Shown piece by piece: positions 1 to 13,421 of a stretch of 39,030 nucleotides of DNA (position 1 is the stretch's first letter; the number at the start of each line of letters is the position of its first letter). The translations under genes and the position numbers were made by a program. This stretch comes from a virus. The stretch is from the UHGV virus genome UHGV-1520160; one strand, given 5' to 3'. The notes under the pieces were generated by a model that did not search any database, had not been told where the DNA came from, and saw nothing but the letters and a program-made list of their open reading frames with translations.

Positions 1-194
1 TTTATCTTCTTTTTATCCTCCCACTCTTTGATTGACTCAGAGCGCCAGCGGTTAGGGTTGCCGGGCCAGTCAGGGGGTGGGAACGGGCATACGAAGCCCC
101 GAGGCATTGTGTCTGCACTTTGCCATGACCAAAGGGTTTTGCGTGAAATTTTGTAGCGACTGGTCAGGTCTGACGTTACCAAAATATCATCCAT
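1..194 (-). CDS. AlpA/Xis-family DNA-binding protein (phage excisionase/regulator-like); C-terminus runs off window start
   Basis: Manual minus-strand translation from ATG at 194: MDDILVTSDLTSRYKISRKTLWSWQSADTMPRGFVCPFPPPDWPGNPNRWRSESIKEWEDKKKI..., open to position 1. HTH-like segment plus F-P-x-P...RW...E..W pattern typical of AlpA/Xis family. Not in ORF track because it is partial. Confidence 0.4.
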   Translation of the reverse strand, partial: MDDILVTSDLTSRYKISRKTLWSWQSADTMPRGFVCPFPPPDWPGNPNRWRSESIKEWEDKKKI

Positions 195-235
195 AGCTCT
201 CTCCAGTTGCCCGTTCGGGCCATTCAAAATCTTTT

Positions 236-478
236 TCAACCAACCTGCCCGGGCAGGGAGCGGAGACGGCGCATGCCTGTCATCGCCGTGGCCACGTAGC
301 TCGCCTTGCGGTTCACTACCTCCACCCAGACCTTCACACCTTCAACTCTCACCGTGTACGTTTCCTTCATCTTGCTGCGTCCGTAGTCGCCGTAGCGTTC
401 GTGATGAGTGGCCAGCGCGATGTCGCATGCCTGACGCGCTATCGGGGATTGCTGATTGCCGCGGTTAATCAGTTTCAT
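236..478 (-). CDS. hypothetical early-left operon protein (80 aa)
   Basis: ORF track; ATGA stop/start overlap with the upstream gene at 475..478 suggests translational coupling. No family recognised. Confidence 0.35.
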   Translation of the reverse strand: MKLINRGNQQSPIARQACDIALATHHERYGDYGRSKMKETYTVRVEGVKVWVEVVNRKASYVATAMTGMRRLRSLPGQVG

Positions 479-669
479 GCTTCACCGCCATCTGGGTTGG
501 ATGATTGACGGAAAATTGCTCGAGACGGCGACCAATCGCAATATGTATCAGTTTCGGTATGCCCGAAAATTGTCTTACAGCGGCGGATATGGGCGCAGTC
601 GCCGCAAGTCTTACCCTTCGGGAGTTTCATTTTGTCGGGGTCTGCCGGGTTATAATTCAGCTCAGTCAT
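475..669 (-). CDS. small Cys-rich (CxxC...C...C) protein, 64 aa; paralog of 9515..9709
   Basis: ORF 475..714 trimmed to the internal ATG at 669 where similarity to the 9515..9709 product begins (MTELNYNPADPDKMKLPKGKTCGDCAHIRRCKTIFGHTETDTYCDWSPSR vs ...LNYDPADPDKMRLPAGITCGNCHHIHRCKAIFGHTESNTYCDWSPSR). Confidence 0.5.
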   Translation of the reverse strand: MTELNYNPADPDKMKLPKGKTCGDCAHIRRCKTIFGHTETDTYCDWSPSRAIFRQSSNPDGGEA

Positions 670-1006
670 TCCAGGCCTCCAGCTCGTTCTGAATTTCCTC
701 GTCGATCTCGTCATTGGTGGCGTCTTCGTTTAGATAGTCGCGCGCCTCTTTGAGATACTGTTCTCGGCGTTCGTGGTACCAAGCAGAGAACTCCGGTGAC
801 CAGCCGCGACCATTACCTTGAAAATCAACCAGAGCGTTGTCCTCAGCCATACGCTCAACCATGCAGTCGGCAGTTGTCAGGGCGCATTCCCGGATGTAAC
901 CGCGAAGGTGGTGTTTGCGCCACCAAGGACTTACTTTCGAATCGCAACGTCCTTTGAACTCAATTTCCCAGCGGCGGATGCAGCGTGCGTTTAAAGATTT
1001 ACTCAT
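662..1006 (-). CDS. hypothetical protein (114 aa), acidic C-terminus
   Basis: ORF track; tightly packed in the minus-strand operon between the annealase gene and the Cys-rich gene. Confidence 0.4.
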   Translation of the reverse strand: MSKSLNARCIRRWEIEFKGRCDSKVSPWWRKHHLRGYIRECALTTADCMVERMAEDNALVDFQGNGRGWSPEFSAWYHERREQYLKEARDYLNEDATNDEIDEEIQNELEAWND

Positions 1007-1040
1007 CTCGTTACCGGGAGGGTTCGCCCTCCCGCCTCCC

Positions 1041-2132
1041 TTAGGCCACGTATTCCGGTTTCATATCCGCCAAGGTGATGCTGAACTGATCGTGCAGTTC
1101 GTCGCCCAGATGACGTTTTGCCGTTGCAAGAACTCGCTCAACTTCCCCAAACCGTTCAGCTGCATCCGGATCATCCGGAGACGGCAGGGAGTTTATCGCG
1201 GCTTCAACCTTGTTACGTGAATCAACCAGGTAGTAGCGCTTCACTGCCTTATTCTTCAGCTCGGTGAACAGGGCAGATCCGAGCGTGGCCTTCGCGCTTT
1301 CGATATCAGCACGCAGTGCTTTGGCGCTATCAACATCCTGTGCTGCCTCGATGCGCTCGCGGAAATCATCGGCAAGAGCGTCGATATTTACCGACGATTC
1401 GTGTGCGCTTTGCGTAGTTGTGACGGTGTCACCTGCGATTTCAGCAACGCTCATTCGTTGGGCTGAGCCAGGGTTAATAACTTTTTCTTCTCGTTCTTCG
1501 ACTTCATCGGCACTGTAAACACCAAGAATCACATCAGGGCAGTACAAGCGAGCCCAGCGCTTTACCGCGAGATAAGCGAGCTGCTGACGCGGATCACTTG
1601 CCCATAGTGTCGAATTACGAACCTGAGCCTGAGAAAGCATGAGTACCAGTTCGCGTGGCTCATCCTCGCCTTTCATCGTTGCCCACACACGAATTCCTAC
1701 ACCGGCCTCATCCTTTAAATCCCAACCGGGCGCGATGTACTTATTGCCTTTAGAACTGGTTCTCTCTACAAATCGACCAATGATGTTTTCCCATGGGCCA
1801 AACCAATCGTAATGAAGGCGATCTTTTGTAGGCGACATGTTGGTAACAACCGCATTAACCAGTTGAGCTTCGTAACCCAACACTCCGCTATTACCGACGA
1901 TGTGGGTCTTCTGAGCTACGGCAAAGGGGTCCATACCCCATCGTGCGGCCTGCATGACCACAGCCATGCAGGCATCTGGTTTTCCGCGGAAGTGGTCAGG
2001 TACAAAAGCGCCACTATTTGCCATCACTGTCGACAAGGTGCGTAGGCGGTCGAAAAGTTCCCCATTAGTCAAAATTGAGATGTTATCGATCATTTGCGTC
2101 TTGTTTTCGTTGGTAGTAATTGCAGTAGACAT
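1041..2132 (-). CDS. putative single-strand annealing recombinase (Bet/RecT superfamily), partner of RecE
   Basis: 363 aa ORF immediately downstream of the recE-like gene on the same strand. Segment ACMAVVMQAARWGMDPFAVAQKTHIV...GVLGYEAQLVNAVV resembles the lambda Bet core from memory. Family call is inferred, not searched. Confidence 0.5.
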   Translation of the reverse strand: MSTAITTNENKTQMIDNISILTNGELFDRLRTLSTVMANSGAFVPDHFRGKPDACMAVVMQAARWGMDPFAVAQKTHIVGNSGVLGYEAQLVNAVVTNMSPTKDRLHYDWFGPWENIIGRFVERTSSKGNKYIAPGWDLKDEAGVGIRVWATMKGEDEPRELVLMLSQAQVRNSTLWASDPRQQLAYLAVKRWARLYCPDVILGVYSADEVEEREEKVINPGSAQRMSVAEIAGDTVTTTQSAHESSVNIDALADDFRERIEAAQDVDSAKALRADIESAKATLGSALFTELKNKAVKRYYLVDSRNKVEAAINSLPSPDDPDAAERFGEVERVLATAKRHLGDELHDQFSITLADMKPEYVA

Positions 2133-2144
2133 GTTCTTTTCCCC

Positions 2145-5100
2145 TTATGCCTGAGTACGCAGCGCTTCAAGGCGGCGCAGGTCGAAGTCGTTCAGTTCGT
2201 CGGTGTAATCAGCGGTGATCGGCGCTGGCCATTCGCCAGTGTCAAAGCCGGTAGCGATAGCGCGCATCGCCTTGCGGTACTCGAGCATGCCCAGCTCTAG
2301 CAGTTCAGCGGATGCCTCGATGATGGCGATCCAGTGGTAGTTCTCGTCTTTGTTGACGAAAATCCAGAAGAACTGGTCAAGTGCCGCGGTCTCGCAATAC
2401 ATGGCGGCGCTCAGGTGATAGTCACGGTCGATGATTTCCCGGTGCAGTTTGGCGCGCAGACCTTCCTGCTTAATGTTCCACATGCTGATGGTTTTAAGGT
2501 CGGCACCGATGCGTACCCCGTCCAAGTCGATCTCAAGGTCAGGACGCACGCGGACTTCAAGTCCGGTTTCGTCGTCAAAGCCAAAATAGCTCACCTCAAC
2601 AGCGCGGCTCGGGTGCTGGAGTAGCATCCCGGCGGTTGGGTGCTGGAGCAGGGCTTTCTGAATGGCCAGTGCGGTGCACAGTTGCTGGCGGGTGACCAGA
2701 ACTTTTCCTTGCGGATTCTCACGCCAGGCATCCAGCAATTCGTCGGCGAAGACGGCGTCCGGATTAACAGACTTCACGGCCTGTATCAGGTCTGATTTGG
2801 TACCGGACACTTTCAGCGGTTGCGGCTTCTGCGCTTCCTGGGCCACCAGGTCAGGATTGATGATTGCCAGCTGCTCGAGTAACGCATCACGGCTACCGCT
2901 GGTTTTCACCTGTGCTGGCAGAGTGGCGTTGTATTCCTTGATGCAGGCTTTCATCGCCGCTGCGGTCTGCTTCTGGTCCGCTTCGATACGCTGATACTCT
3001 TCAGGAAGCGACATATAGCTCTGACCAGTTTCCTCGACTGAACCACCCAGCGGCACCTGTGCTGGCAGAGTGGCGTTGTATTCTTCGAGCAAGGCTTTGA
3101 TCTCATCTGCACTCAGCAGCGCTTGCAGACCTGCGTTGTAATCATCGATAAACGCGCGGATCGTTGCCGTCGTGGTGAATGCGCCTTCCGGAATTACCGG
3201 TTCAACGCTGAATTCCTCATCGAGCTGCTCTGGCTGCAACGCCAGTGCATGAACCAGGTTACCCATGTCCAGCACCGGAGAACGCTCTTTGGTGATCGTT
3301 TTGGCAACGTGGCGCGCGTTGAAGTACATCAGGCTAACGCGGGCATCTTTTACCTGCGTGCTGCTGATCCCGTTCGCTGCGTGATAAACCTCGTTCGGCA
3401 GACCTTCATAGCGACCTGGCTCGAAGTAAGCGGGGTAAACAACAGCTGGTTCGTCAGATTGGGCATCTGGCTCGGTTTGTGCCAAAACTGGTTCAGTCTG
3501 GTTTACAGAATCGCTATTTTGGGCGACAGAATCCGTATTCTGGTTTACATCGGCTTGCTGGCTGGTATCTGATTCTTCACCAGTTTCCATACTGCTTTTG
3601 CCTGACTGCACTTCAGTACCAGCCTGTTTTTCATCACTGACAGTTTCTTGAACCTGCACATTGCTGGTGGTCTCCGTAGCCTTTTTCGTGCCATGAGTAG
3701 CTGAGTTCTGCAGCAAAGCCGTAACGTCGAATATTCCGTTGCCGACATTTTTAACCAGTTCTTGTTCGACTTTCTGCGGTTGTGCCGCAGCTTCCTCTGC
3801 GCGGCGGCGTGCTCCTTCTTCACGCACGCGTTGCAGGTTCTCTTCGTGAGTGCAGAAGGATTTGCGCGGAGACTCCTTACTTTCAGGTTGGTGAATTTCC
3901 TGAGTTGCTACTTCAGCTTCATGCAACGGCAATAACTCAACCGCAGAGTTGAATTCAGCAGTCATGGTCTGGTTAACAAATTCCAGGTGAGCGACAGGGG
4001 TTAGATGAATATTTTCCGGCGCGATACGTACCAGGTTAAAAATAGCCGTGCGGTTAACGCCAAGAGCGCCAGGCTGATTGCGCAGAATGCTGCTCCATGA
4101 TTTCCACGGTTCTTCTTTTTTGGTCACGATTTCTTTGGCGCGACGAAGAATGCTGCCTGGGATCTCGAAGTGGTTGAAGTCCATAGGCAGAAGGGCACAG
4201 GCAATCTCTAAATCGAGAGTGTCCAGGGTGTGGTGTGCGTCAGGTCCACGGTCAGTGACGTAACCGCCGTTGGCATTGGTTCCGGAATCAGTACGCTGAA
4301 CACTACTGATGTGATTACCGGCAGCCCATTCACGCGCCAGGATGCCACGGTCAATGTAATCAGTAGCCGCCCACATTCTGGTGAAACGGAGTACCAGCGC
4401 GAGTTCGTGACGCTTGTCCTGGCTGAACACTTTGCGAATGGCATCGGTGTAGCGCCACAGGTCTTTGGTGTCGTAACCCTTCACTTCCGGGCAGTTCTCA
4501 GCAGCTAACAGCAAGTTCTGGACGTAACTGTTATCAGTGTCCATCTCCAGCGCGCCGATAGCTTCGTACTCTTCGCGGGTTACGTGGTGGCGCAGTTCGT
4601 CGGCGGTGAACTGGGAAAGCAGTTGCTTACGAAACGGCATCTGCACTACCGGGTAGAGGGTTGAGTCGTCGTCGTGTTCGTCCAGCGTGATGCCAGCGGT
4701 TTCTGGCAGCGTTGACTCAGTAGTTATGTGACTATCAACGGTCTGAGCCGTTTTCTCGTCAGAGTTTTCAGCTGTGACTTTTGGCAGCCAGGTGCGGTCA
4801 TCGTTCTGCAGTTCGTAGCGTTCGCACCAGGTGTAATCCACTGCGCCTTCTTCCGGCAGGTCGTCATATACCGGGAAATCGGTGCGGATTGGTTTGGCAT
4901 AATCTTTACCGCGGCCAGTTTCTTCAATTCCGGCTTCTTCCAGTGCCACATCGAGTTGGAGATTGGCGCGCGCTACACTTTTCGCAGTGAACCAAATCAC
5001 TGCATCTTTCTTGCCAGACTTCTGACTGGCTTTTATCAGATGGAAAAATTCCATGTGAGATCCTCTTTTTTGAGTGTTAGAATCCCCGGGCCAGAGATAG

Positions 5101-5159
5101 CGCCCATTGGATGTTTTTTGGTTTGGTATAAATTCCGGTGTAACTTTGGTCGGTGGCAC
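2145..5159 (-). CDS. recE: exodeoxyribonuclease VIII (RecE-like)
   Basis: 1004 aa. Recalled E. coli RecE similarity at N-terminus (DAVIWF...DFPVYDDLPEEGAVDYTWCERYELQ...DYIDRGILAREWAAGNHISSVQRTDSGTNANGGYVTDRG) and in the C-terminal nuclease region (YFEPGRYEGLPNEVYHAANGISSTQ...KTISMW). Confidence 0.8.
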   Translation of the reverse strand: MPPTKVTPEFIPNQKTSNGRYLWPGDSNTQKRGSHMEFFHLIKASQKSGKKDAVIWFTAKSVARANLQLDVALEEAGIEETGRGKDYAKPIRTDFPVYDDLPEEGAVDYTWCERYELQNDDRTWLPKVTAENSDEKTAQTVDSHITTESTLPETAGITLDEHDDDSTLYPVVQMPFRKQLLSQFTADELRHHVTREEYEAIGALEMDTDNSYVQNLLLAAENCPEVKGYDTKDLWRYTDAIRKVFSQDKRHELALVLRFTRMWAATDYIDRGILAREWAAGNHISSVQRTDSGTNANGGYVTDRGPDAHHTLDTLDLEIACALLPMDFNHFEIPGSILRRAKEIVTKKEEPWKSWSSILRNQPGALGVNRTAIFNLVRIAPENIHLTPVAHLEFVNQTMTAEFNSAVELLPLHEAEVATQEIHQPESKESPRKSFCTHEENLQRVREEGARRRAEEAAAQPQKVEQELVKNVGNGIFDVTALLQNSATHGTKKATETTSNVQVQETVSDEKQAGTEVQSGKSSMETGEESDTSQQADVNQNTDSVAQNSDSVNQTEPVLAQTEPDAQSDEPAVVYPAYFEPGRYEGLPNEVYHAANGISSTQVKDARVSLMYFNARHVAKTITKERSPVLDMGNLVHALALQPEQLDEEFSVEPVIPEGAFTTTATIRAFIDDYNAGLQALLSADEIKALLEEYNATLPAQVPLGGSVEETGQSYMSLPEEYQRIEADQKQTAAAMKACIKEYNATLPAQVKTSGSRDALLEQLAIINPDLVAQEAQKPQPLKVSGTKSDLIQAVKSVNPDAVFADELLDAWRENPQGKVLVTRQQLCTALAIQKALLQHPTAGMLLQHPSRAVEVSYFGFDDETGLEVRVRPDLEIDLDGVRIGADLKTISMWNIKQEGLRAKLHREIIDRDYHLSAAMYCETAALDQFFWIFVNKDENYHWIAIIEASAELLELGMLEYRKAMRAIATGFDTGEWPAPITADYTDELNDFDLRRLEALRTQA

Positions 5160-5192
5160 CGGACGTGAATCCCGCCTTGCGCGGGTTTTACG

Positions 5193-5354
5193 TTAGCCTT
5201 CGTGAGCCATCTGGTCGTGCGAAGCGCAACGTTTGGAGCAATACTCTTTTTCTTTGCGCGCCAGCTGTGAGCCGTTGCGATAGAGAAGGGTGCTCTTGAT
5301 TACTTCCTCCGTTTTAACCGGCTTGCCGCAATATCCGCATTTCTTGTCTAACAT
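5193..5354 (-). CDS. small zinc-ribbon protein (53 aa)
   Basis: Manual translation: MLDKKCGYCGKPVKTEEVIKSTLLYRNGSQLARKEKEYCSKRCASHDQMAHEG. Two Cys pairs (CxxC ... CxxxC), immediately upstream of recE in the same operon. Below the 60 aa cutoff of the ORF track. Confidence 0.4.
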   Translation of the reverse strand: MLDKKCGYCGKPVKTEEVIKSTLLYRNGSQLARKEKEYCSKRCASHDQMAHEG

Positions 5355-5365
5355 GACATCCTCCG

Positions 5366-5572
5366 CTAGTGGCTGAGTCCATGCCCCAGACCGTTCAGAT
5401 AAACTTCAACCAGCAAATCCTTGGTGTAAGTCATTTCTACGCCGCGATGCAGATACAAACGTCCGCGAGCGTTAGCTGATGCCGTCCAGGTTGAGTCTTT
5501 GTGTTTGACGAGCATCCCCGGCTGAACTGCGCCGCGGTTTACTGTCTGTGTACCGTAGTGCTGATGAACCAT
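5366..5572 (-). CDS. hypothetical protein (68 aa), first gene of leftward early operon
   Basis: ORF 5366..5716 trimmed to the ATG at 5572, which has a GGAG Shine-Dalgarno 7 nt upstream. The longer ORF begins with TTG at 5716 and has no SD. Confidence 0.35.
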   Translation of the reverse strand: MVHQHYGTQTVNRGAVQPGMLVKHKDSTWTASANARGRLYLHRGVEMTYTKDLLVEVYLNGLGHGLSH

Positions 5573-5591
5573 GATGTTCTCCAGTTTTTCT

Positions 5592-5676
5592 GAGTGAACT
5601 TCGCTGGTGGTGCCGCGGCGCTGATCTTCACGGTTGAGCGTTTTAACTCTGCAATTCACCACCGCGAAGCTCACTC
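5592..5676 (-). promoter_or_regulatory. long inverted repeat (about 20-bp arms, about 44-nt spacer) in the leader of the leftward early operon
   Basis: Arm 5592..5612 gagtgaacttcgctggtggtg against the reverse complement of 5657..5676 caccaccgcgaagctcactc; one mismatch and one indel. Confidence 0.35.
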
Positions 5677-5927
5677 TGTGCTTTGCCCTTGTCGCCAGGC
5701 TGGCGGAACGTTTCAAACCTACTGCGCGTTAATCTCACCACCTCATTCCGGTCTTCGTATGCCCCGGACGGCTACTTCGTGGGCTCCATGCCTGGGTGGT
5801 TCGTGGTGCGTCTTGGTGAGTTAGATTAAATCACTGGTTTATATATATGTCAACTTAAGGTTGGTGTTAATTGTAAATCTGAGGTTTATGTGGCTGGGTT
5901 TTGTGACACGTCTGCAGAATCGCAGGC

Positions 5928-5954
5928 AAAAAAAATCCCGACGCGTGGTCGGGA
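5928..5954 (-). terminator. rho-independent terminator ending the repressor-cassette transcript (tImm-like position)
   Basis: Plus strand has an A8 run 5928..5935 then stem tcccgac/gtcggga with loop gcgtg (5936..5954); on the minus strand this is a GC hairpin followed by U8. Confidence 0.55.
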
Positions 5955-6027
5955 TGAGAAGGTTCGGGGAAGGCGACAGAGTTAGTAGCTGAGAGCCTTA
6001 TAACTCAGGCGTATTGACCAAATCTGA

Positions 6028-6549
6028 CTAAAAGAAGTGCATAAAAGCTTTGTACAGCCCTGTACCAATGGCGATAATCGCAGGGACACCTAAGAGAATC
6101 GCCAATTTAGCATCAGAGATTTTCTTGTCCACTGTGTCTGATGAGGGCTTTTTGTCTACAGACTCTTTGATACTAGACAGCCTCTCCAAAACTACAGCCA
6201 TATTTTTGTCCAGTGAATTCACTGTCGTATCAACTTTTGAAACTGTGTTTTTTATCTCGGCAACATCTTTCTTGATGTGGGCAACTTCAACCTCAAGAAT
6301 AGCCAATCTCTTTTCCATGTCGTCACCTCCATCTTCAGTTGACGTATGAATGATTTCAGTATCATCCATAGCAACTGATGTGACAATCCGTTTTTGTTTA
6401 TCCGAAGCGGCAAAACTACAAGCACCCATAAGGAAGGTTGCTTGGCTCGAAGCTACTGATGAAAACTCTAAGCCTACTGTAGCTCCGCTATGGTCTGAAT
6501 ATGCAATCAATAACTTCCCTTCACCAAGAGATGATTGAGCCGCATCCAT
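6028..6549 (-). CDS. tail-anchored coiled-coil membrane protein (173 aa); candidate effector of the rex-position cassette
   Basis: ORF track trimmed to the ATG at 6549 (AGGAA about 10 nt upstream). Heptad-like central region (MEKRLAILEVEVAHIKKDVAEIKNTVSKVDTTVNSLDKNMAVVLERLSSIKESV) and one C-terminal hydrophobic helix (LAILLGVPAIIAIGTGLYKAF). Region looks AT-richer than flanks by eye. Confidence 0.5.
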   Translation of the reverse strand: MDAAQSSLGEGKLLIAYSDHSGATVGLEFSSVASSQATFLMGACSFAASDKQKRIVTSVAMDDTEIIHTSTEDGGDDMEKRLAILEVEVAHIKKDVAEIKNTVSKVDTTVNSLDKNMAVVLERLSSIKESVDKKPSSDTVDKKISDAKLAILLGVPAIIAIGTGLYKAFMHFF

Positions 6550-6555
6550 CAATTA

Positions 6556-6837
6556 TTATTCCTCAAACATACTTTTTAAGGATTGATAAAAATCATAAGC
6601 CTTTTGTTTGCTTAAAGTCACAGACACAACTTTGGTTCGCTGCATGCCCTTGACGACTATATCCGCATTATCCGTACCGATGATCGGGCTGCTATTCAGG
6701 AACACAAAATTGTAAACTTCGTAACCGGCATTTTGTGTGCCGATTGTTACGACACCGTCAGCATTGGTCTCGATGAAATTTTTCGCTTCGATTACATCAT
6801 TAAGATGCATAAGTTCGACGGTTGTTTCTTTAGACAC
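6556..6837 (-). CDS. hypothetical soluble protein (93 aa), first gene of the rex-position cassette
   Basis: GTG start at 6837 with a GGAGG Shine-Dalgarno 5 nt upstream; 6-nt gap to the downstream gene; 64-nt AT-rich spacer after the repressor stop. Confidence 0.5.
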   Translation of the reverse strand: MSKETTVELMHLNDVIEAKNFIETNADGVVTIGTQNAGYEVYNFVFLNSSPIIGTDNADIVVKGMQRTKVVSVTLSKQKAYDFYQSLKSMFEE

Positions 6838-6901
6838 CGAATCCTCCAGAAGATATTAAATCTTGAAATATTTTTATTACATGGAATTAGATACTACTGG
6901 T

Positions 6902-7291
6902 TTAGGTTTGCTCACCTTGCGATCGAATCCGACCCTTCATGTACTTCTCGTACAGCTCATCTAACTCTTTCAGGCGAAGCGCAAAAATGCGGAGCATGTT
7001 CTGCTGCTCTTCTTCCGGTAACTGGCGGTAGAGCTCGAGCAAACGCTGTTCGTCCGGTTTGAGACCGTCTTTCTCCCCAACGTCTTCACCGAGTAGCCAG
7101 GCGACAGAAATACCAACAGCGTCGGCTATGGCCAGTGCCGATTTCTTACTAATCACGCCTTTTTTGAACCAGCCGTTTACGGCCTGAGGGGTGACTCCAG
7201 CTATTCTTGCCATGTCTGCTTTGGTAACGCCGCGATCAGTGATCTCAGTAAGGCGCTCCACCAGAACGAGGTTGGGTTCTTCTTTTCTCAT
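6902..7291 (-). CDS. prophage repressor, DicA/RacR-type HTH (XRE family), no S24 peptidase domain
   Basis: ORF 6902..7561 trimmed to the ATG at 7291 (MRKEEPNLVLVERLTEITDRGVTKADMARIAGVTPQAVNGWFKKG...). C-terminal LLELYRQLPEEEQ resembles the DicA C-terminal segment from memory. Divergent from a Cro-like gene. Confidence 0.7.
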   Translation of the reverse strand: MRKEEPNLVLVERLTEITDRGVTKADMARIAGVTPQAVNGWFKKGVISKKSALAIADAVGISVAWLLGEDVGEKDGLKPDEQRLLELYRQLPEEEQQNMLRIFALRLKELDELYEKYMKGRIRSQGEQT

Positions 7292-7393
7292 ATGGTCATT
7301 GTAAATATTTGGTTTATGCACGCAATAAATCCAAAGTTTGCATGAAGTATAAATCTGTGGTTTACTTCTGCTATCAATAAGCAGGAGAAGCAC
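7292..7393. promoter_or_regulatory. immunity-region intergenic: divergent promoters with repeated operator-like motif TAAAT-N5-GGTTTA
   Basis: gtaaatatttggtttatg at 7301..7318 and taaatctgtggtttac at 7350..7365; a third copy gtaaatctgaggtttatg at 5873..5890 lies upstream of the leftward operon. Confidence 0.5.
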
Positions 7394-7612
7394 ATGTCCG
7401 CACTCGATAAAGCAATTAAAGCCGCTGGCTCTGCCAGAAAGCTCAGCATCGCGCTTGGTGTGACGAGTATGTCTGTAAGTCATTGGAAGAATCGTGACCA
7501 AGGGATCGTCCCGCCAAGCTATATCTTCCCGATTTTCAAAATGACAGGCGTAACCCCCCACGAGCTGCGCCCTGATCTCTATCCAAATCCCACTGACGGA
7601 TTACCAAAGTAG
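7394..7612 (+). CDS. Cro-like HTH regulator (YdaS-type)
   Basis: 72 aa, HTH segment ARKLSIALGVTSMSVSHWKNR, conserved ELRPDL near the C-terminus; divergent from the repressor; RBS ggagaag upstream. Confidence 0.65.
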   Translation: MSALDKAIKAAGSARKLSIALGVTSMSVSHWKNRDQGIVPPSYIFPIFKMTGVTPHELRPDLYPNPTDGLPK

Positions 7613-7623
7613 GAGCACTGACA

Positions 7624-8181
7624 ATGCAAACACTTTCTTTTCAACAGAATAACAGAGCGCCATCAGAGCACCTGAAATTCCAGTATCAACACAGTGAGGC
7701 TGAAGGCCAGCCGGTCGATCACCGGGCTATCTGTTCTGCCGTCCGCGCCTGGGCGGCGGCAGAGGGCCGCGTGGCGGTCGCTCTGGCGATTAAAGAGGCT
7801 GCCGAACAGGCCGAGCTTGACAGCATTGACATGACCGGCAGCGCCGATGTGTGGAACGTGAAGCTGTTTCGCTGGCTGGACAACCACGAGAAATCACCGG
7901 CCTACCGGGCGAACGTCGAGCAGCTGGCGCCGGTAATAATTTCGGTTCTGCCGCTGGCGTACCGGGATCGCGTGATTAAGCACGACTGCTTTGCGGTTCG
8001 TGTCGCCAGGTCGGTGAAAGAAGACGCTGAGGCGATACAGGCTGTCGTCCTCAAAGCCCCCAGACACGAACGGATGAAGGAAATCAGCGAGAGCATCGTA
8101 GCCAAGCTCTACCTGGACGGACCTGATTCTGTGGCGCCCATTATGGCGATGGTTACAACGATGCTGGGTGGTGCGCTATGA
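7624..8181 (+). CDS. YdaT-like protein at the cII position
   Basis: 185 aa ORF immediately after the Cro-like gene, the same order as racR-ydaS-ydaT in Rac. Family call from gene order and loose recollection. Confidence 0.4.
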   Translation: MQTLSFQQNNRAPSEHLKFQYQHSEAEGQPVDHRAICSAVRAWAAAEGRVAVALAIKEAAEQAELDSIDMTGSADVWNVKLFRWLDNHEKSPAYRANVEQLAPVIISVLPLAYRDRVIKHDCFAVRVARSVKEDAEAIQAVVLKAPRHERMKEISESIVAKLYLDGPDSVAPIMAMVTTMLGGAL

Positions 8182-8265
8182 CGGGCTCAGAAATGGCGAA
8201 AGCCGCGGTGCTCGAACACCAACGGCTTTCAGGTGCAAAAACTGTGCGTAATTGCGGAGAACAGT

Positions 8266-9177
8266 ATGTCAAATACCGCTGAAATATTCAAATTCCCCAC
8301 ACAGCAGGGGAAACAGGAGAGCAGCATGGCTGAACTGGAGAAAGGCTATTTGCGCCTGGCCAACCAGATTCAGGATGCCCTGTGTATCGTCGAACTATCC
8401 GGGCGCGAGTTCCGGGTGCTGAATGCTATCGTTCGTCTGACCTATGGCTGGTCTAAGAGTTCTGACCGCATCGCCAATAGCCTCATTGCAGATAAAACGA
8501 CGCTGAAGGTGAAACACGTCTCTGAAGCCGTGTTGAGCCTTGCCTATCGGAACATCATCATCCTGCGCCGCATTGGGCAAACCAGATACATAGGGATTAA
8601 TACCAGCCTGGATAAATGGGCGTATACCAAGCCAAATTGCATGAAGTGTCCAGCGGTGTTTCCTGCTGCTGAAGTTGTCACATGGGTTATTACCATCCCT
8701 GAATTCAGGGATAGCAATTTTACCCCTTCAATCATCCCTGAAAACGGGGATAACCATCCCCAAAAACAGGGAGAGGTATCCCTGAAAACAGGGAACACCA
8801 AAGACATTCTTCCAAATACAAATATAAATACAGATCTAACCCCCTCTAATCCCCCAAAGGGGAAGGGTAAGTTTGACCCGCTGACGATTCCCGTTCCTGA
8901 GTGGCTTGATTCTGTGTCCTGGAGTGAGTGGGTGGCCTACCGCCAACAGTCTGGCAAAGCCATCAAGACCGAAATGACGGTCACCAAAGCATTCAAGTTG
9001 CTCAAGGCTTGCCTGGACGCTGGGCATGACCCCGTTGATGTGATCAACACCAGTATCGCCAACGGGTACCAGGGACTGTTTAAACCGAAGTTCGCTCTCA
9101 ACGCTCGCAAAACGGGCAGGGATGTGAACCGCATTTCTGAGCCAGACAAAACAATCCCACCCGGATTCAGGGGGTAA
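8266..9177 (+). CDS. replication initiation protein, lambda O-like N-terminal domain
   Basis: ORF trimmed to the ATG at 8266 (GGAGA RBS). N-terminus MSNTAEIFKFP...ELEKGYLRLANQI...SGREFRVLNAIVRLTYGWSK matches recalled lambda O (MTNTAKILNF...DLDDGYARLSNML...RQFKVLLAILRKTYGWNK). Iterons lie inside the gene. Confidence 0.8.
   Translation: MSNTAEIFKFPTQQGKQESSMAELEKGYLRLANQIQDALCIVELSGREFRVLNAIVRLTYGWSKSSDRIANSLIADKTTLKVKHVSEAVLSLAYRNIIILRRIGQTRYIGINTSLDKWAYTKPNCMKCPAVFPAAEVVTWVITIPEFRDSNFTPSIIPENGDNHPQKQGEVSLKTGNTKDILPNTNINTDLTPSNPPKGKGKFDPLTIPVPEWLDSVSWSEWVAYRQQSGKAIKTEMTVTKAFKLLKACLDAGHDPVDVINTSIANGYQGLFKPKFALNARKTGRDVNRISEPDKTIPPGFRG
8695..8795. repeat. replication origin iterons: four copies of palindromic ATCCCT-N4-6-AGGGA, followed by an AT-rich stretch
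   Basis: atccctgaattcagggat 8695..8712; atccctgaaaacggggat 8734..8751; atccccaaaaacagggag 8756..8773; atccctgaaaacagggaa 8778..8795. AT-rich run caaatacaaatataaatacag at about 8813..8833. Same layout as ori-lambda inside O. Confidence 0.65.
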
Positions 9178-9179
9178 GC

Positions 9180-9518
9180 ATGCCAAGACCAAATACACCA
9201 GAAGAGCAGGCGGCACTTATCCGGGTGATCATCGAAGAGGTGAAAATCCGTGGACGCTTAACCGTTAGCGAGGCATCACAGATGTTGTCGCTGCATCGTC
9301 AGACTGCTGAGAAGTATTTCCGCGTAGCAGCCGAACGCGGCGAACTCATTCGTTACGGTCGTCTAGGTTTGTTCAGGGACCCAAAGGCTGTAATTGATTT
9401 CGATCTCCAACGATTCTCATACGGTTCGAGTAAGCCTCTGATTGAGTTACCAGCAGATTTTCGGGGAAGTGCGGTTATGCGTCGGGTTATAGATATCGTG
9501 GGGAGGATGCCAGCATGA
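9180..9518 (+). CDS. hypothetical protein (112 aa) in the position of a replication partner (lambda P slot)
   Basis: ORF track; aggggg RBS; possible HTH (LTVSEASQMLSLHRQTAEKYF). No resemblance to lambda P recalled. Confidence 0.4.
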   Translation: MPRPNTPEEQAALIRVIIEEVKIRGRLTVSEASQMLSLHRQTAEKYFRVAAERGELIRYGRLGLFRDPKAVIDFDLQRFSYGSSKPLIELPADFRGSAVMRRVIDIVGRMPA

Positions 9519-9709
9519 CAACCGAAAAACTGGCGTTGAATTATGACCCAGCCGATCCCGACAAGATGCGATTACCGGCTGGCATAACATGTGGTAATTG
9601 CCACCATATCCATCGTTGTAAAGCAATTTTTGGACACACGGAGTCGAACACATATTGCGATTGGTCACCGTCGCGATTTACTGCTGGCATTGGCGTGAAG
9701 GGGGATTGA
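9515..9709 (+). CDS. small Cys-rich (CxxC...C...C) protein, 64 aa; paralog of 475..669
   Basis: ORF track; about two-thirds amino-acid identity with the minus-strand product 475..669 by eye. Confidence 0.5.
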   Translation: MTTEKLALNYDPADPDKMRLPAGITCGNCHHIHRCKAIFGHTESNTYCDWSPSRFTAGIGVKGD

Positions 9710-9710
9710 G

Positions 9711-9917
9711 ATGATTGCTGCAAACTACACAGTCAATCTCTACTGCGACTGCGATGAGTGCACCGGTAAGCAATGGGGAAGCCCAGATTTTGCCGAGTAC
9801 ATTGGAAATTCATGGTCTGGCTGCGCTAAAGAGGCGCGGCCACATGGCTGGCGTATCAGCAAGGATAGAACGCGAGCGTTCGCGCCAGGTCACAAGATTT
9901 CGAGGACTAACCCATGA
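9711..9917 (+). CDS. hypothetical Cys-rich protein (68 aa)
   Basis: ORF track; CDCDEC motif plus a further Cys; gggggattgag RBS; coupled to neighbours. Confidence 0.4.
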   Translation: MIAANYTVNLYCDCDECTGKQWGSPDFAEYIGNSWSGCAKEARPHGWRISKDRTRAFAPGHKISRTNP

Positions 9918-10285
9918 CAACTATTACCAAAAAGCAACGCGCAGAGCTACGCATGAAGTTTGGCGGTCGCTGTACTTATTGTGGATGCGAACTACCAGAG
10001 AAAGGCTGGCATGCTTACCATGTAAAACCGGTCATTCGTTTTGATGGAAATATGCTTCACCAGGAACGTGACGATATATCAAACATGGTTCCAGCATGCC
10101 ACCCATGCAATCTGCACAAGCATTGCAGTAGCCTGGAAGATTACCGGCGAATTATCGGTGATGGTCGTCGTGAATTCCTTGTGTCCGGGAAAGGCAAAGC
10201 GCTGGTTCGTATGGGATTGGTTGAAATGAAATCTGACCCAGTGGTGTTCTGGTTCGAAAAATATCAAGAAGGAGCGTCAGCATGA
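9914..10285 (+). CDS. HNH endonuclease
   Basis: CTYCGC...HAYHVKPV...ACHPCNLHKH: Cys pairs with His-Asn-His spacing typical of HNH nucleases. Confidence 0.65.
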   Translation: MTTITKKQRAELRMKFGGRCTYCGCELPEKGWHAYHVKPVIRFDGNMLHQERDDISNMVPACHPCNLHKHCSSLEDYRRIIGDGRREFLVSGKGKALVRMGLVEMKSDPVVFWFEKYQEGASA

Positions 10286-10761
10286 CAACTAACAACCACC
10301 CGGCGCACGGTCCTGTATCACTCGATCGCCTGCACCAGATACGTGAAATACTCAGCAAAGCAGCAGCACAAAGCGACGGCGGTAATGTCGGCTATGCGAT
10401 GGCTGATGCTGTGAAGGTGATTAATGGAGTTCTGGAGTCGATGGCCCGTGAGCAAGTACGCCGTGAGCATGCTACATGGTCACAGGCTACTTTCGGCGAT
10501 GTCGGTCCAGTTGGTCCTCTGAAGCACCTTTCTAAAGAAGCGCTCGAGGCTGCTGCTGAACCTGGCGACCTTAGCGAATGGGCTGACATGCAATTCCTGT
10601 TATGGGATACGCAGCGTCGTGCCGGTATCAGTGATGAACAGATTACCCAAGCGATGGTAGAGAAGTTGGCGATTAACAAACAGCGCAAATGGCCTGAGCC
10701 GAAAGACGGTGAGCCATGTGTACATGACAGAATGAATCATGAGCGTATTGATTTTAGCTGA
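10282..10761 (+). CDS. putative phage nucleotide pyrophosphohydrolase-like protein (DUF550/MazG-like), tentative
   Basis: 159 aa ORF in the nin-like region; family assignment from loose recollection of the N-terminal region only. Confidence 0.35.
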   Translation: MTTNNHPAHGPVSLDRLHQIREILSKAAAQSDGGNVGYAMADAVKVINGVLESMAREQVRREHATWSQATFGDVGPVGPLKHLSKEALEAAAEPGDLSEWADMQFLLWDTQRRAGISDEQITQAMVEKLAINKQRKWPEPKDGEPCVHDRMNHERIDFS

Positions 10762-10889
10762 CTCACCGTAGCAACAATGAATAATGTTTCGAGTGTATTT
10801 GATTATGCATTGTGAGATGGACATTACTGAGAGTGTAAATCTTAGTTTATGATAATGGACAGCAATGAAATTATACCCGGAGAGCGATA

Positions 10890-11357
10890 ATGGATACTAA
10901 GAATGAAGTTGTGCAACATTCATCACCCCAGCAGGCAGTGAGAGTATTTGCCGAGGCCCTTGAACAAGCCGTTAGGGAGAACACTATAGAAGATTCGAAC
11001 TCTCGGTCGCCTGGAAAAACTGTGCTTGATTCAAATTCAGAAATAAAATCTTCAACAATTGTCGGTGCTGGTGGATTGATCGGAACTGCTGGCGTTGCAG
11101 CCACTACAGCTTCGGCCGTTACTGGTGGGTCAGCTGCTACTATAATGTCTGCAACAGCTGGAACAGTTGGAGCCAGTGTTGCATCTTTAGCAGGCGCAGC
11201 AGGAACGGCAGGGGCTGCGTCGATCTCATCCGGAATGGCAGCCGTTGGTTCGGTTGTTGGAGGAGGAATGGCCGCCGGGGCAATAATCACAGCGGTGGCA
11301 CCTGTCGCAGCAGTCGCAAGTGTTGCTTACTTGGCTTTTAAGCTTTTTGAAGATTAA
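10890..11357 (+). CDS. Gly/Ala/Thr/Ser-rich hydrophobic (glycine-zipper-like) membrane protein with about 55-aa polar N-terminal domain
   Basis: 155 aa; C-terminal two-thirds is low-complexity (GAGGLIGTAGVAATTASAVTGGSAATIMSATAGTVGASV...AYLAFKLFED). AT-rich 128-bp upstream spacer; GGAG RBS 9 nt before the ATG. Confidence 0.5.
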   Translation: MDTKNEVVQHSSPQQAVRVFAEALEQAVRENTIEDSNSRSPGKTVLDSNSEIKSSTIVGAGGLIGTAGVAATTASAVTGGSAATIMSATAGTVGASVASLAGAAGTAGAASISSGMAAVGSVVGGGMAAGAIITAVAPVAAVASVAYLAFKLFED

Positions 11358-11561
11358 CTAACCTTTCATAAAGGCTGTTTAAGCAGGCTAATTTTCATAT
11401 CTTAGTAAAGTTTCTGCTGGTTAATAATTAGCAGATACAAAACAGAATCCCGCGATTTCACGGCGGAGCCAGCTATGTTTGCTGAAGCACTGGTGCGTGC
11501 AAATTTGCCAGAGCTTTGTCAGCAGAAACAAATAGCGGCTTAATAAAACATTGCTAATTCA

Positions 11562-11589
11562 ACCCGCTACGGCGGGTTTTCTTTTTTTA
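11562..11589 (+). terminator. rho-independent terminator
   Basis: cccgc-tacg-gcggg hairpin followed by ttttcttttttt. Confidence 0.5.
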
Positions 11590-11650
11590 CTACTGACAGA
11601 AAATTAACAATTTGTGCTCTTAAAACGTTGATCATTTCCGTGCATAGGTA

Positions 11651-11670
11651 TACTGTATAAAAACACAGTA
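11651..11670. promoter_or_regulatory. LexA (SOS) box upstream of the dinI homolog
   Basis: tactgtataaaaacacagta fits the CTGT-N8-ACAG consensus exactly and overlaps a TATAAA -10-like element; a TTGATC -35-like hexamer lies at 11628..11633. Confidence 0.7.
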
Positions 11671-11688
11671 CATGCAATGGAGGCCATT

Positions 11689-11922
11689 ATGAAAGTTGAA
11701 TTAACCATTGATCGCATGAAAGAACTTCCTAAAGGCGCGGTACCAGCACTGGAGAAAGAATTGCTTAAGCGCCTGAATGATCACTATGACAATTGCAGGC
11801 TCACAATCCGCCGTGCCGGGTCCGATGGGTTAAGTGTTTTCGGTGGAGACAAGGACGATAAAAAGAAAATCGAATCCATCCTCCAGGAAACCTGGGAAAG
11901 CGCTGACGACTGGTTTTATTAG
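11689..11922 (+). CDS. dinI: DinI-family DNA damage-inducible protein
   Basis: ORF trimmed to the ATG at 11689 (GGAGG RBS). MKVELTIDRMKELPKGAVPALEKELLKRL...ILQETWESADDWFY matches recalled E. coli DinI (MRIEVTIAK...ISEILQETWESADDWF). Confidence 0.85.
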   Translation: MKVELTIDRMKELPKGAVPALEKELLKRLNDHYDNCRLTIRRAGSDGLSVFGGDKDDKKKIESILQETWESADDWFY

Positions 11923-12039
11923 AATTGCGCTTAAGGCTGGCGCGCATTTATCAGAATACCGCAATTTGCGTAACCCTCTGATGCTGCTGCCGACAATCTT
12001 TAATCGCGTCTGTTAGTCGCTCGAAGGGAGAACATAAAT

Positions 12040-12922: not shown

Positions 12923-13128
12923 TGGCGATGAAATTTTCCTGGTTCCACCATCACGAATGCACCACCGAACAGGCCGACGAGCTGGTGGAGAAATACCGGG
13001 CGCGCGGTGTAAAGACAGAGCGCAGCCTGAATCGCGACAACATCACCTGGACCGTCAGCGCGCAATTGCCGGAAGGCGACAACGCGCCTCGCCCGAGCTG
13101 GGTATGGCAAAGCAAGGCGTGGGGGTGA
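12919..13128 (+). CDS. hypothetical small protein (69 aa) in the NinE position
   Basis: ORF track; ATGA overlap with the upstream gene. No similarity to lambda NinE recalled. Confidence 0.35.
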   Translation: MMAMKFSWFHHHECTTEQADELVEKYRARGVKTERSLNRDNITWTVSAQLPEGDNAPRPSWVWQSKAWG

Positions 13129-13130
13129 GC

Positions 13131-13421
13131 ATGGCAAATTTACGCAAAGAGGCTCGTGGTCGTGATTGTCAGGTTCGAATTCCCGGCGTCTGCAACGGTA
13201 ACCCGGAAACGTCTGTACTGGCGCACATTCGCCTGGCCGGGTTATGTGGCACCGGAATCAAACCGCCTGATCTGATTGCCACCATTGCATGCTCTGCCTG
13301 TCACGACGAGATCGACCGCCGTACACATTTTGTCGATGCTGAGTATGCTAAAGAATGCTCGCTGGAAGGTATGGCGAGAACGCAGGTCATCTGGCTTAAA
13401 GAGGGGCTCGTGAAAGCATGA
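13131..13421 (+). CDS. YbcO-like protein (DUF1364-type Cys-rich putative nuclease)
   Basis: ORF 12912..13421 trimmed to the ATG at 13131: [64 protein letters not shown]... closely matches recalled DLP12 YbcO. Confidence 0.7.

Follow-up and report, generated by a model that had tools for sequence, protein, structure and literature searches.

The two genes for a small cysteine-rich protein in the window are xenologues, which were joined by mosaicism and not by duplication in place. The window is the whole stretch of DNA analysed here, 39,030 nucleotides of the virus genome UHGV-1520160. The explanation that fits the data best is that both are real genes of the family phrog_10154, that they were united in a recombinant prophage, and that they encode an early protein with a putative metal site of four cysteines. 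As a whole, this explanation is considered likely. The two copies and the genes adjoining them are located as follows.

236 to 478, minus strand: DUF4060 gene (PF13269, E=6e-35), ATGA-coupled downstream of copy 1
475 to 669, minus strand: copy 1, 64-aa protein with four cysteines (translation; phrog_10154, E=9e-33), left-arm type
662 to 1006, minus strand: gene of a 114-aa protein (phrog_6675, E=1e-68), directly upstream of copy 1
9180 to 9518, plus strand: DUF977 gene (PF06163, E=5e-15), upstream of copy 2
9515 to 9709, plus strand: copy 2, 64-aa protein with four cysteines (translation; phrog_10154, E=1e-25), right-arm type
9711 to 9917, plus strand: gene of a 68-aa Cys-rich protein (phrog_926, E=4e-30), directly downstream of copy 2

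The preliminary description had placed 64-aa products at both positions, and an intact open reading frame of 64 codons plus stop, with zero frameshifts, was found at each. Copy 1 is preceded by the Shine-Dalgarno sequence GGAGG. It shares 8 nt with the end of the 114-aa gene that precedes it, and an ATGA joins its stop to the start of the DUF4060 gene. Copy 2 has the Shine-Dalgarno sequence GGGGAGGA, its start forms an ATGA overlap with the DUF977 gene, and the 68-aa gene starts one base past its stop. For neither copy was a promoter or terminator of its own detected beyond shuffle expectation, and a third copy of the family was absent from the window.

The two proteins were aligned by BLASTP with 37/47 identities (79% over a 47-aa core; E=2e-30), which is far beyond chance. 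The full-length protein identity was 63 to 64%, and 102 of 141 core nucleotides (72%) were identical, in good agreement with the earlier estimates of two-thirds for the protein and about 70 percent for the DNA. The cysteines C22, C25, C31 and C44 are conserved in both copies, as had also been described. Copy 1 has the tail ...SPSRAIF...GGEA, while copy 2 reads TCGNCHHI...SPSRF; consistent differences between the types were seen at the N-terminus, at CGDC versus CGNC and in the tail. The differences between the copies were distributed over codon positions 1, 2 and 3 as 10, 5 and 24. The pairwise comparison gave a pS of 0.81, which is saturated, and a dN of 0.144. The earlier statement that this is not a recent duplication was therefore right; only the bringing together of the copies is recent.

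The exact copy 1 protein was present on 629 contigs, each time named 'hypothetical protein', and the exact copy 2 protein on 226 contigs. Since both occur in hundreds of assemblies, neither copy is a pseudogene. The idea that the similarity is fortuitous or non-coding, or that one copy is decaying, has practically no probability left and is refuted by these data. Although the reading frames are short and are overlapped by antisense reading frames, the E value between the copies, the excess of differences at the third position (24 versus 10 and 5), a median dN/dS of 0.087 in the family (647 pairs, 90 distinct core DNAs), the 1370 related clusters and the wide occurrence of both exact proteins all contradict it.

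The origin of the double copy was evident from the sliding identity between the window and related prophages. The following features belong to the region concerned.

1041 to 2132, minus strand: recT (open reading frame list; annotation of near-identical loci), upstream of the copy 1 cassette
2145 to 5159, minus strand: recE (open reading frame list; annotation of near-identical loci), upstream of the copy 1 cassette
5100 to 5400, no strand: recombination switch zone (sliding identity), at the 5' end of recE and ydaE
5193 to 5354, early-left operon: YdaE (PF27493), a small Cys-containing Rac prophage protein

From position 301 to 5100 the window was approximately 100% identical to prophage L013, which contains copy 1 only, and 67 to 90% identical to L004 and L009. 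From 5400 to 12000 it was approximately 100% identical to L004 and L009, which contain copy 2 only, while L013 gave little or no match. The identity of L013 to the window was 100% up to 5100 and 79% after it. The identity of L004 was 78.7% up to 5100, 95% in 5101 to 5400 and 100% from 5401. Because the identity switches parents at about 5100 to 5400, the window is a recent recombinant of two Rac-like prophages. In the prophages with copy 2 only, recT directly adjoins the DUF4060 gene, and the prophages with copy 1 only have different replication modules. Of 93 family representatives, 69 were nearer to copy 1 than copy 2 is to copy 1, and 36 were nearer to copy 2 than copy 1 is to copy 2. A tandem or segmental duplication in place was rejected, as the copies are not mutual closest relatives and prophages of the parental types are single-copy. 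Mosaic assembly from two phages, one of the two origins proposed earlier, is thus strongly supported, with each arm approximately 100% identical to single-copy prophages.

The first parent was of the Rac-like type with a cassette of phrog_6675 and copy 1 in the left slot, and the second of the Rac-like type with copy 2 in the right slot. Homologous recombination close to the 5' end of recE recently combined the left arm of the first with the rest of the second. Homology-driven formation of lambdoid mosaics by Rad52-like recombinases, Rac RecT included, is established (De Paepe et al. 2014, PMC3945230). The exchange seen here is of the same kind, in that related temperate or defective prophages recombine at diverged homologous sequences. 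The junction lies inside or beside the recET module itself, and the one particular consequence of the exchange is that a single genome now has two members of one accessory family. The double copy is a case of routine lambdoid mosaicism, produced by a clean and recent exchange with its junction at recE.

Three further features define the surroundings of the copies.

474 to 1015, minus strand: two-gene cassette of phrog_6675 and copy 1 (blastn breakpoints)
1015 to 1034, minus strand: GC-rich 8-bp hairpin cGGGAGGGcgaaCCCTCCCg, directly after the recT stop and without a T-run
8233 to 9177, plus strand: replication protein O-like gene (PF04492, E=1e-27), upstream of copy 2

Comparison with L004 and L001 by blastn showed that window positions 1 to 473 and 1016 to 1586 align, and that 474 to 1015 are missing. 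The cassette is thus present or absent between recT and the DUF4060 gene in Rac-like prophages; it was absent from H1 and L003 to L010, and present in L011 to L020. The hairpin cGGGAGGGcgaaCCCTCCCg was kept with or without the cassette, and the insertion point lies just 3' of it (L004 junction alignment). A role in transcript stability, or as a landmark for recombination, is conceivable. The 114-aa phrog_6675 protein had zero matches in Pfam and NCBIfam. On the right side, the order O-like gene, DUF977 gene and copy 2 was the same in L003 to L010. The 68-aa phrog_926 protein had zero Pfam matches, and its reading frame was called inconsistently in otherwise identical loci (L003, L006 and L007 versus L004, L005 and L008).

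RecE was of variable length among near-identical Rac-like prophages (920, 944, 969, 1004, 1080, 1109 and 1129 aa), and window positions of about 4367 to 4778, within recE, were missing from several relatives. At 5935 to 5955 on the minus strand, between a 173-aa gene (6028 to 6552) and kilR/ydaE/recET, the sequence ATCCCGACcacgcGTCGGGAT with a subsequent T7 forms a strong terminator-like hairpin. For recET and copy 1 to be expressed, transcription may therefore have to pass it by read-through or antitermination.

In every context examined, the family gene was part of an early operon of a temperate phage or prophage. One location is the early-left slot between the recombination genes and xis/int, which is occupied in E. 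coli (copy 1), Klebsiella, Pectobacterium, Enterobacter, Bordetella, Azospirillum and Hafnia phage yong2. The other is the early-right slot after the replication genes, as in E. coli (copy 2), Raoultella, Bordetella phage PBb001 and the second double-copy prophage described below. The neighbours varied and included phrog_6675 with DUF4060, DUF977 with phrog_926, a Lar-domain protein, ParB-like proteins, DUF7446 with NinX or DUF1382, and Ead/Ea22. Clustering of the flanking genes in 96 unique contexts revealed no universal partner gene. The commonest upstream gene, phrog_6675, was present in 22 of these contexts, a count explained by the centring of the sampling on copy 1.

The family gene was nearly always translationally coupled to the gene upstream. 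Unrelated upstream proteins shared a few convergent C-terminal tails (...REAK*, ...AQESE* and ...EAWND*), and the Shine-Dalgarno sequence and start of the family gene were embedded in the last codons of the upstream gene (L100, L118, L106, L113 and window positions 662 to 680). The gene therefore seems to travel with the 3' end of the preceding gene.

The frequency of double carriage was determined in two ways. Among 237 complete E. coli genomes, 20 contained the cassette, 3 contained copy 2 and 0 contained both. Under independence, about 0.25 doubles are expected (237 x (20/237) x (3/237)). Expressed per family-bearing complete E. coli genome, double carriage was 0/22. A per-locus HMM scan of the 189 family-bearing loci listed, with 10-kb flanks, slightly undercounts doubles; among these loci it revealed two copies only in IMGVR_UViG_2778261419_000003 from IMG/VR, which is 100% identical to window positions 1 to 10669 and is apparently the source of the window. 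A second double, IMGVR_UViG_2848626167_000006, was found by comparing contig names across two IMG/VR scans. This contig (L065/L150) contains a copy-1-type gene (89% identical) that adjoins recT at about 2311 to 2499, and a copy-2-type gene (84% identical) at 13128 to 13319 in the early-right operon. The latter is located after a DnaT-like/DnaC-like module and before a dATP/dGTP pyrophosphohydrolase gene. The scans with 10-kb flanks missed this double because its copies are 10.6 kb apart. At least two distinct double-copy contigs were thus present among about 190 sampled family-bearing loci.

Two other loci were observed in this context. Locus L014 (GCA_016664165.1, DADCKB010000001.1) carries copy 1 and was 100% identical to window positions 1 to 4200 and 7201 to 8300 (ydaS/ydaT/repO). 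It has an immunity-left region with HicAB and ends inside repO, and its prophage may be a third double. Citrobacter pasteurii CIP 55.13 contained family members on two contigs of one genome (L033 and L042); two copies per genome can therefore also come from separate prophages.

Doubles are rare but recurrent, and their rate is about that of random assortment. Within the 10-kb flanks of the loci listed, no evidence of selection for or against two copies was seen. The preliminary description had offered a need for the function at two stages as the other explanation, which is unsupported at this frequency. The operons had also been called differently regulated. This is not clearly the case, as both appear, from the lambdoid architecture, to be early operons diverging from the same immunity region. 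Retention of the double copy by selection, whether for dosage, timing or separate targets (subfunctionalisation), is improbable. In its favour, neither copy is interrupted and purifying selection acts on each lineage, the types differ consistently at the positions given above, and the independently assembled IMGVR_UViG_2848626167_000006 has the same left and right arrangement with a different replication module. However, nearly all sampled prophages were single-copy, the absence of doubles from the 22 genomes is close to the approximately 0.25 predicted by random assortment, and the junction in the window is recent, with about 100% identity to both parents. In addition, the sequence type does not strictly follow the slot, as family member P0087 is of the SPSRF type, yet belongs to an early-left operon.

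Profile searches assigned both copies to phrog_10154, which is annotated as 'unknown function' and which also matches fused and distant members. The phrog_10154 HMM matched copy 1 with E=9e-33 (residues 1 to 57 on profile positions 6 to 62 of 63) and copy 2 with E=9.9e-26 (residues 8 to 56). A word-indexed search yielded 93 family clusters at 90% identity, every one named 'hypothetical protein'; they were mainly from Enterobacteriaceae, and Bordetella, Azospirillum and Pectobacterium were represented too. The exhaustive profile search gave 1370 clusters at 50% identity (E<=1e-3), 276 of them at E<=1e-10. Among isolated phage genomes, relatives were present in five records only, all annotated as hypothetical. 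Neither copy had a match in Pfam, NCBIfam or PADLOC, and 147 diverse family members had zero matches in Pfam. Sequence and profile searches of the PDB gave chance matches only (Apaf-1 WD40, E=0.12; Nqo3, E=1.1), and a Foldseek fold search gave none that was significant. A literature search found no paper mentioning phrog_10154 or DUF4060, and a keyword search on small Cys-rich early prophage proteins gave nothing relevant.

Both copies share the core motif C-x2-C-x5-C-x12-C-D-W, with L-P-x-G-x-T before the first cysteine and P-S-R-[FA] after the last. Of 240 family sequences, 210 had the cysteine spacing 2/5/12. In the wide family, C22 was invariant, C25, C31 and C44 were kept in at least 90% of the sequences, and M14, L16, P17, T21, G36, D45, P48 and F51 were kept as well. 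The histidines of the close family, H27 and H37, varied. The core identity was 70 to 88% across Gamma- and Betaproteobacteria and 53% in an alphaproteobacterial Sphingobium MAG. The family is under strong purifying selection. Distant homologues (P0184, P0153, P0203 and P0143) contained tandem copies of the domain or fusions to unannotated extensions, including phrog_1273; in P0184 the domain was a tandem repeat within one protein. Domain fusions were discarded as a functional clue, as the longer members had only such unannotated extensions or a tandem domain.

Four known groups of small cysteine proteins were compared with the family. In the Rac prophage of E. coli K-12, the gene of the 64-aa zinc-ribbon protein Lar/RalR lies close behind recT in the early-left operon. 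Lar/RalR (PF14354) is thus similar in size (about 64 aa), cysteine content and position downstream of recT, and in Bordetella the gene immediately preceding a family member encodes a Lar domain. The zinc ribbon of Lar contains two CxxC pairs; phrog_10154 has one CxxC and two single cysteines. Lar was rejected as a relative, with no Pfam match to Lar_restr_allev at E<=1 and an hhalign probability of 0.04% for RalR. YdaE is also small and Cys-containing and is encoded in the same early-left operon, but it gave no Pfam match and an hhalign probability of 1.6% for a 7-residue CxxC stretch only.

High-potential iron-sulfur proteins (HiPIPs) are likewise small, with four cysteines including CxxC and a Y/W-C-D-aromatic motif, and they were the top, non-significant fold matches. 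Homology to HiPIP (PF01355), suggested by these weak Foldseek matches and by CxxC...YCDW, was rejected at an hhalign probability of 0.5%. WhiB-like (Wbl) proteins are also small, with four cysteines and the C-x2-C-x5-C spacing. The family differs from them in the absence of GVWGG and in having the fourth cysteine downstream instead of upstream. They were rejected at an hhalign probability of 0.07% for WhiB1, and the G[VI]WGG turn was absent.

Taken together, the near-invariant cysteines, their rigid spacing, the very low dN/dS and a model rich in loops suggest a Cys4 metal-binding mini-domain, in which zinc or possibly an Fe-S cluster would hold the 47 residues together. AlphaFold2 was run with 95 and with 147 sequences, and the two results agreed, with a mean pLDDT of 77 and values of 81 to 92 for the core (residues 11 to 50). 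The predicted model contains one helix (residues 28 to 34), the remainder being loops and bridges, and it has the look of a small metal-stabilised domain. The four cysteines would most likely hold one Zn(II), or alternatively an Fe-S cluster, and the metal would fold the loop-rich mini-domain around its single helix.

The alternative that the cysteines bind [4Fe-4S] and not Zn, in a redox- or O2-sensitive mini Fe-S protein, is a real but less probable one, zinc being the default. WhiB-like proteins have the C-x2-C-x5-C spacing among their cluster ligands, and the cluster loop of Endo III/MutY has it too. The family has only a single CxxC knuckle, two isolated cysteines and five conserved aromatic residues, which would suit a cluster. 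The top Foldseek matches were HiPIPs (1isu_A, E=6.8; a phage HiPIP, E=7.6), and the best PDB profile match was the N4 cluster region of Nqo3, none of them significant.

With regard to the role of the protein, the lack of a fixed partner, the early DNA-metabolism setting and the core identity of 70 to 88% suggest a stand-alone early binder. It would be made early after induction and would act alone, without a fixed partner gene. Conservation and gene neighbourhood suggest that it probably binds a conserved macromolecule of host or phage in DNA transactions. With a median pI of 7.7 the core is nearly neutral, and nucleic-acid binding is therefore not suggested.

It is unlikely that the protein counters restriction or other defences in the manner of Lar/Ral, being made early to shield the DNA of incoming or induced phage. 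Copy 1 is located downstream of recT, as RalR is in K-12 Rac, and the overlapping gene upstream of the Bordetella member carries the Lar_restr_allev domain. Klebsiella prophages have DNA methyltransferase genes two or three genes upstream, and the gene belongs to accessory regions of early operons. Such a function is nevertheless hard to reconcile with the absence of any sequence relation to Lar and of a PADLOC match, with the highly variable neighbours, and with a core identity that would be unusual for counter-defence genes, which tend to diversify. Little weight is also given to a more far-reaching proposal, in which phrog_10154 would be a new C-x2-C-x5-C-x12-C metalloprotein fold, possibly a minimal Fe-S one, directed early in the lytic cycle against a highly conserved host machine by temperate phages of Proteobacteria, and in which the pairing of left and right copies would be favoured through different targets or timing.

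With the Cys4 metal site and the stand-alone early role as the preferred reading, phrog_10154 is a large family of 1370 clusters that is catalogued in PHROG, yet has no Pfam model, structural relative or annotation. For an accessory phage protein of 47 residues, this level of conservation suggests that the interaction partner is conserved as well, and the family is therefore a reasonable candidate for biochemical characterisation.
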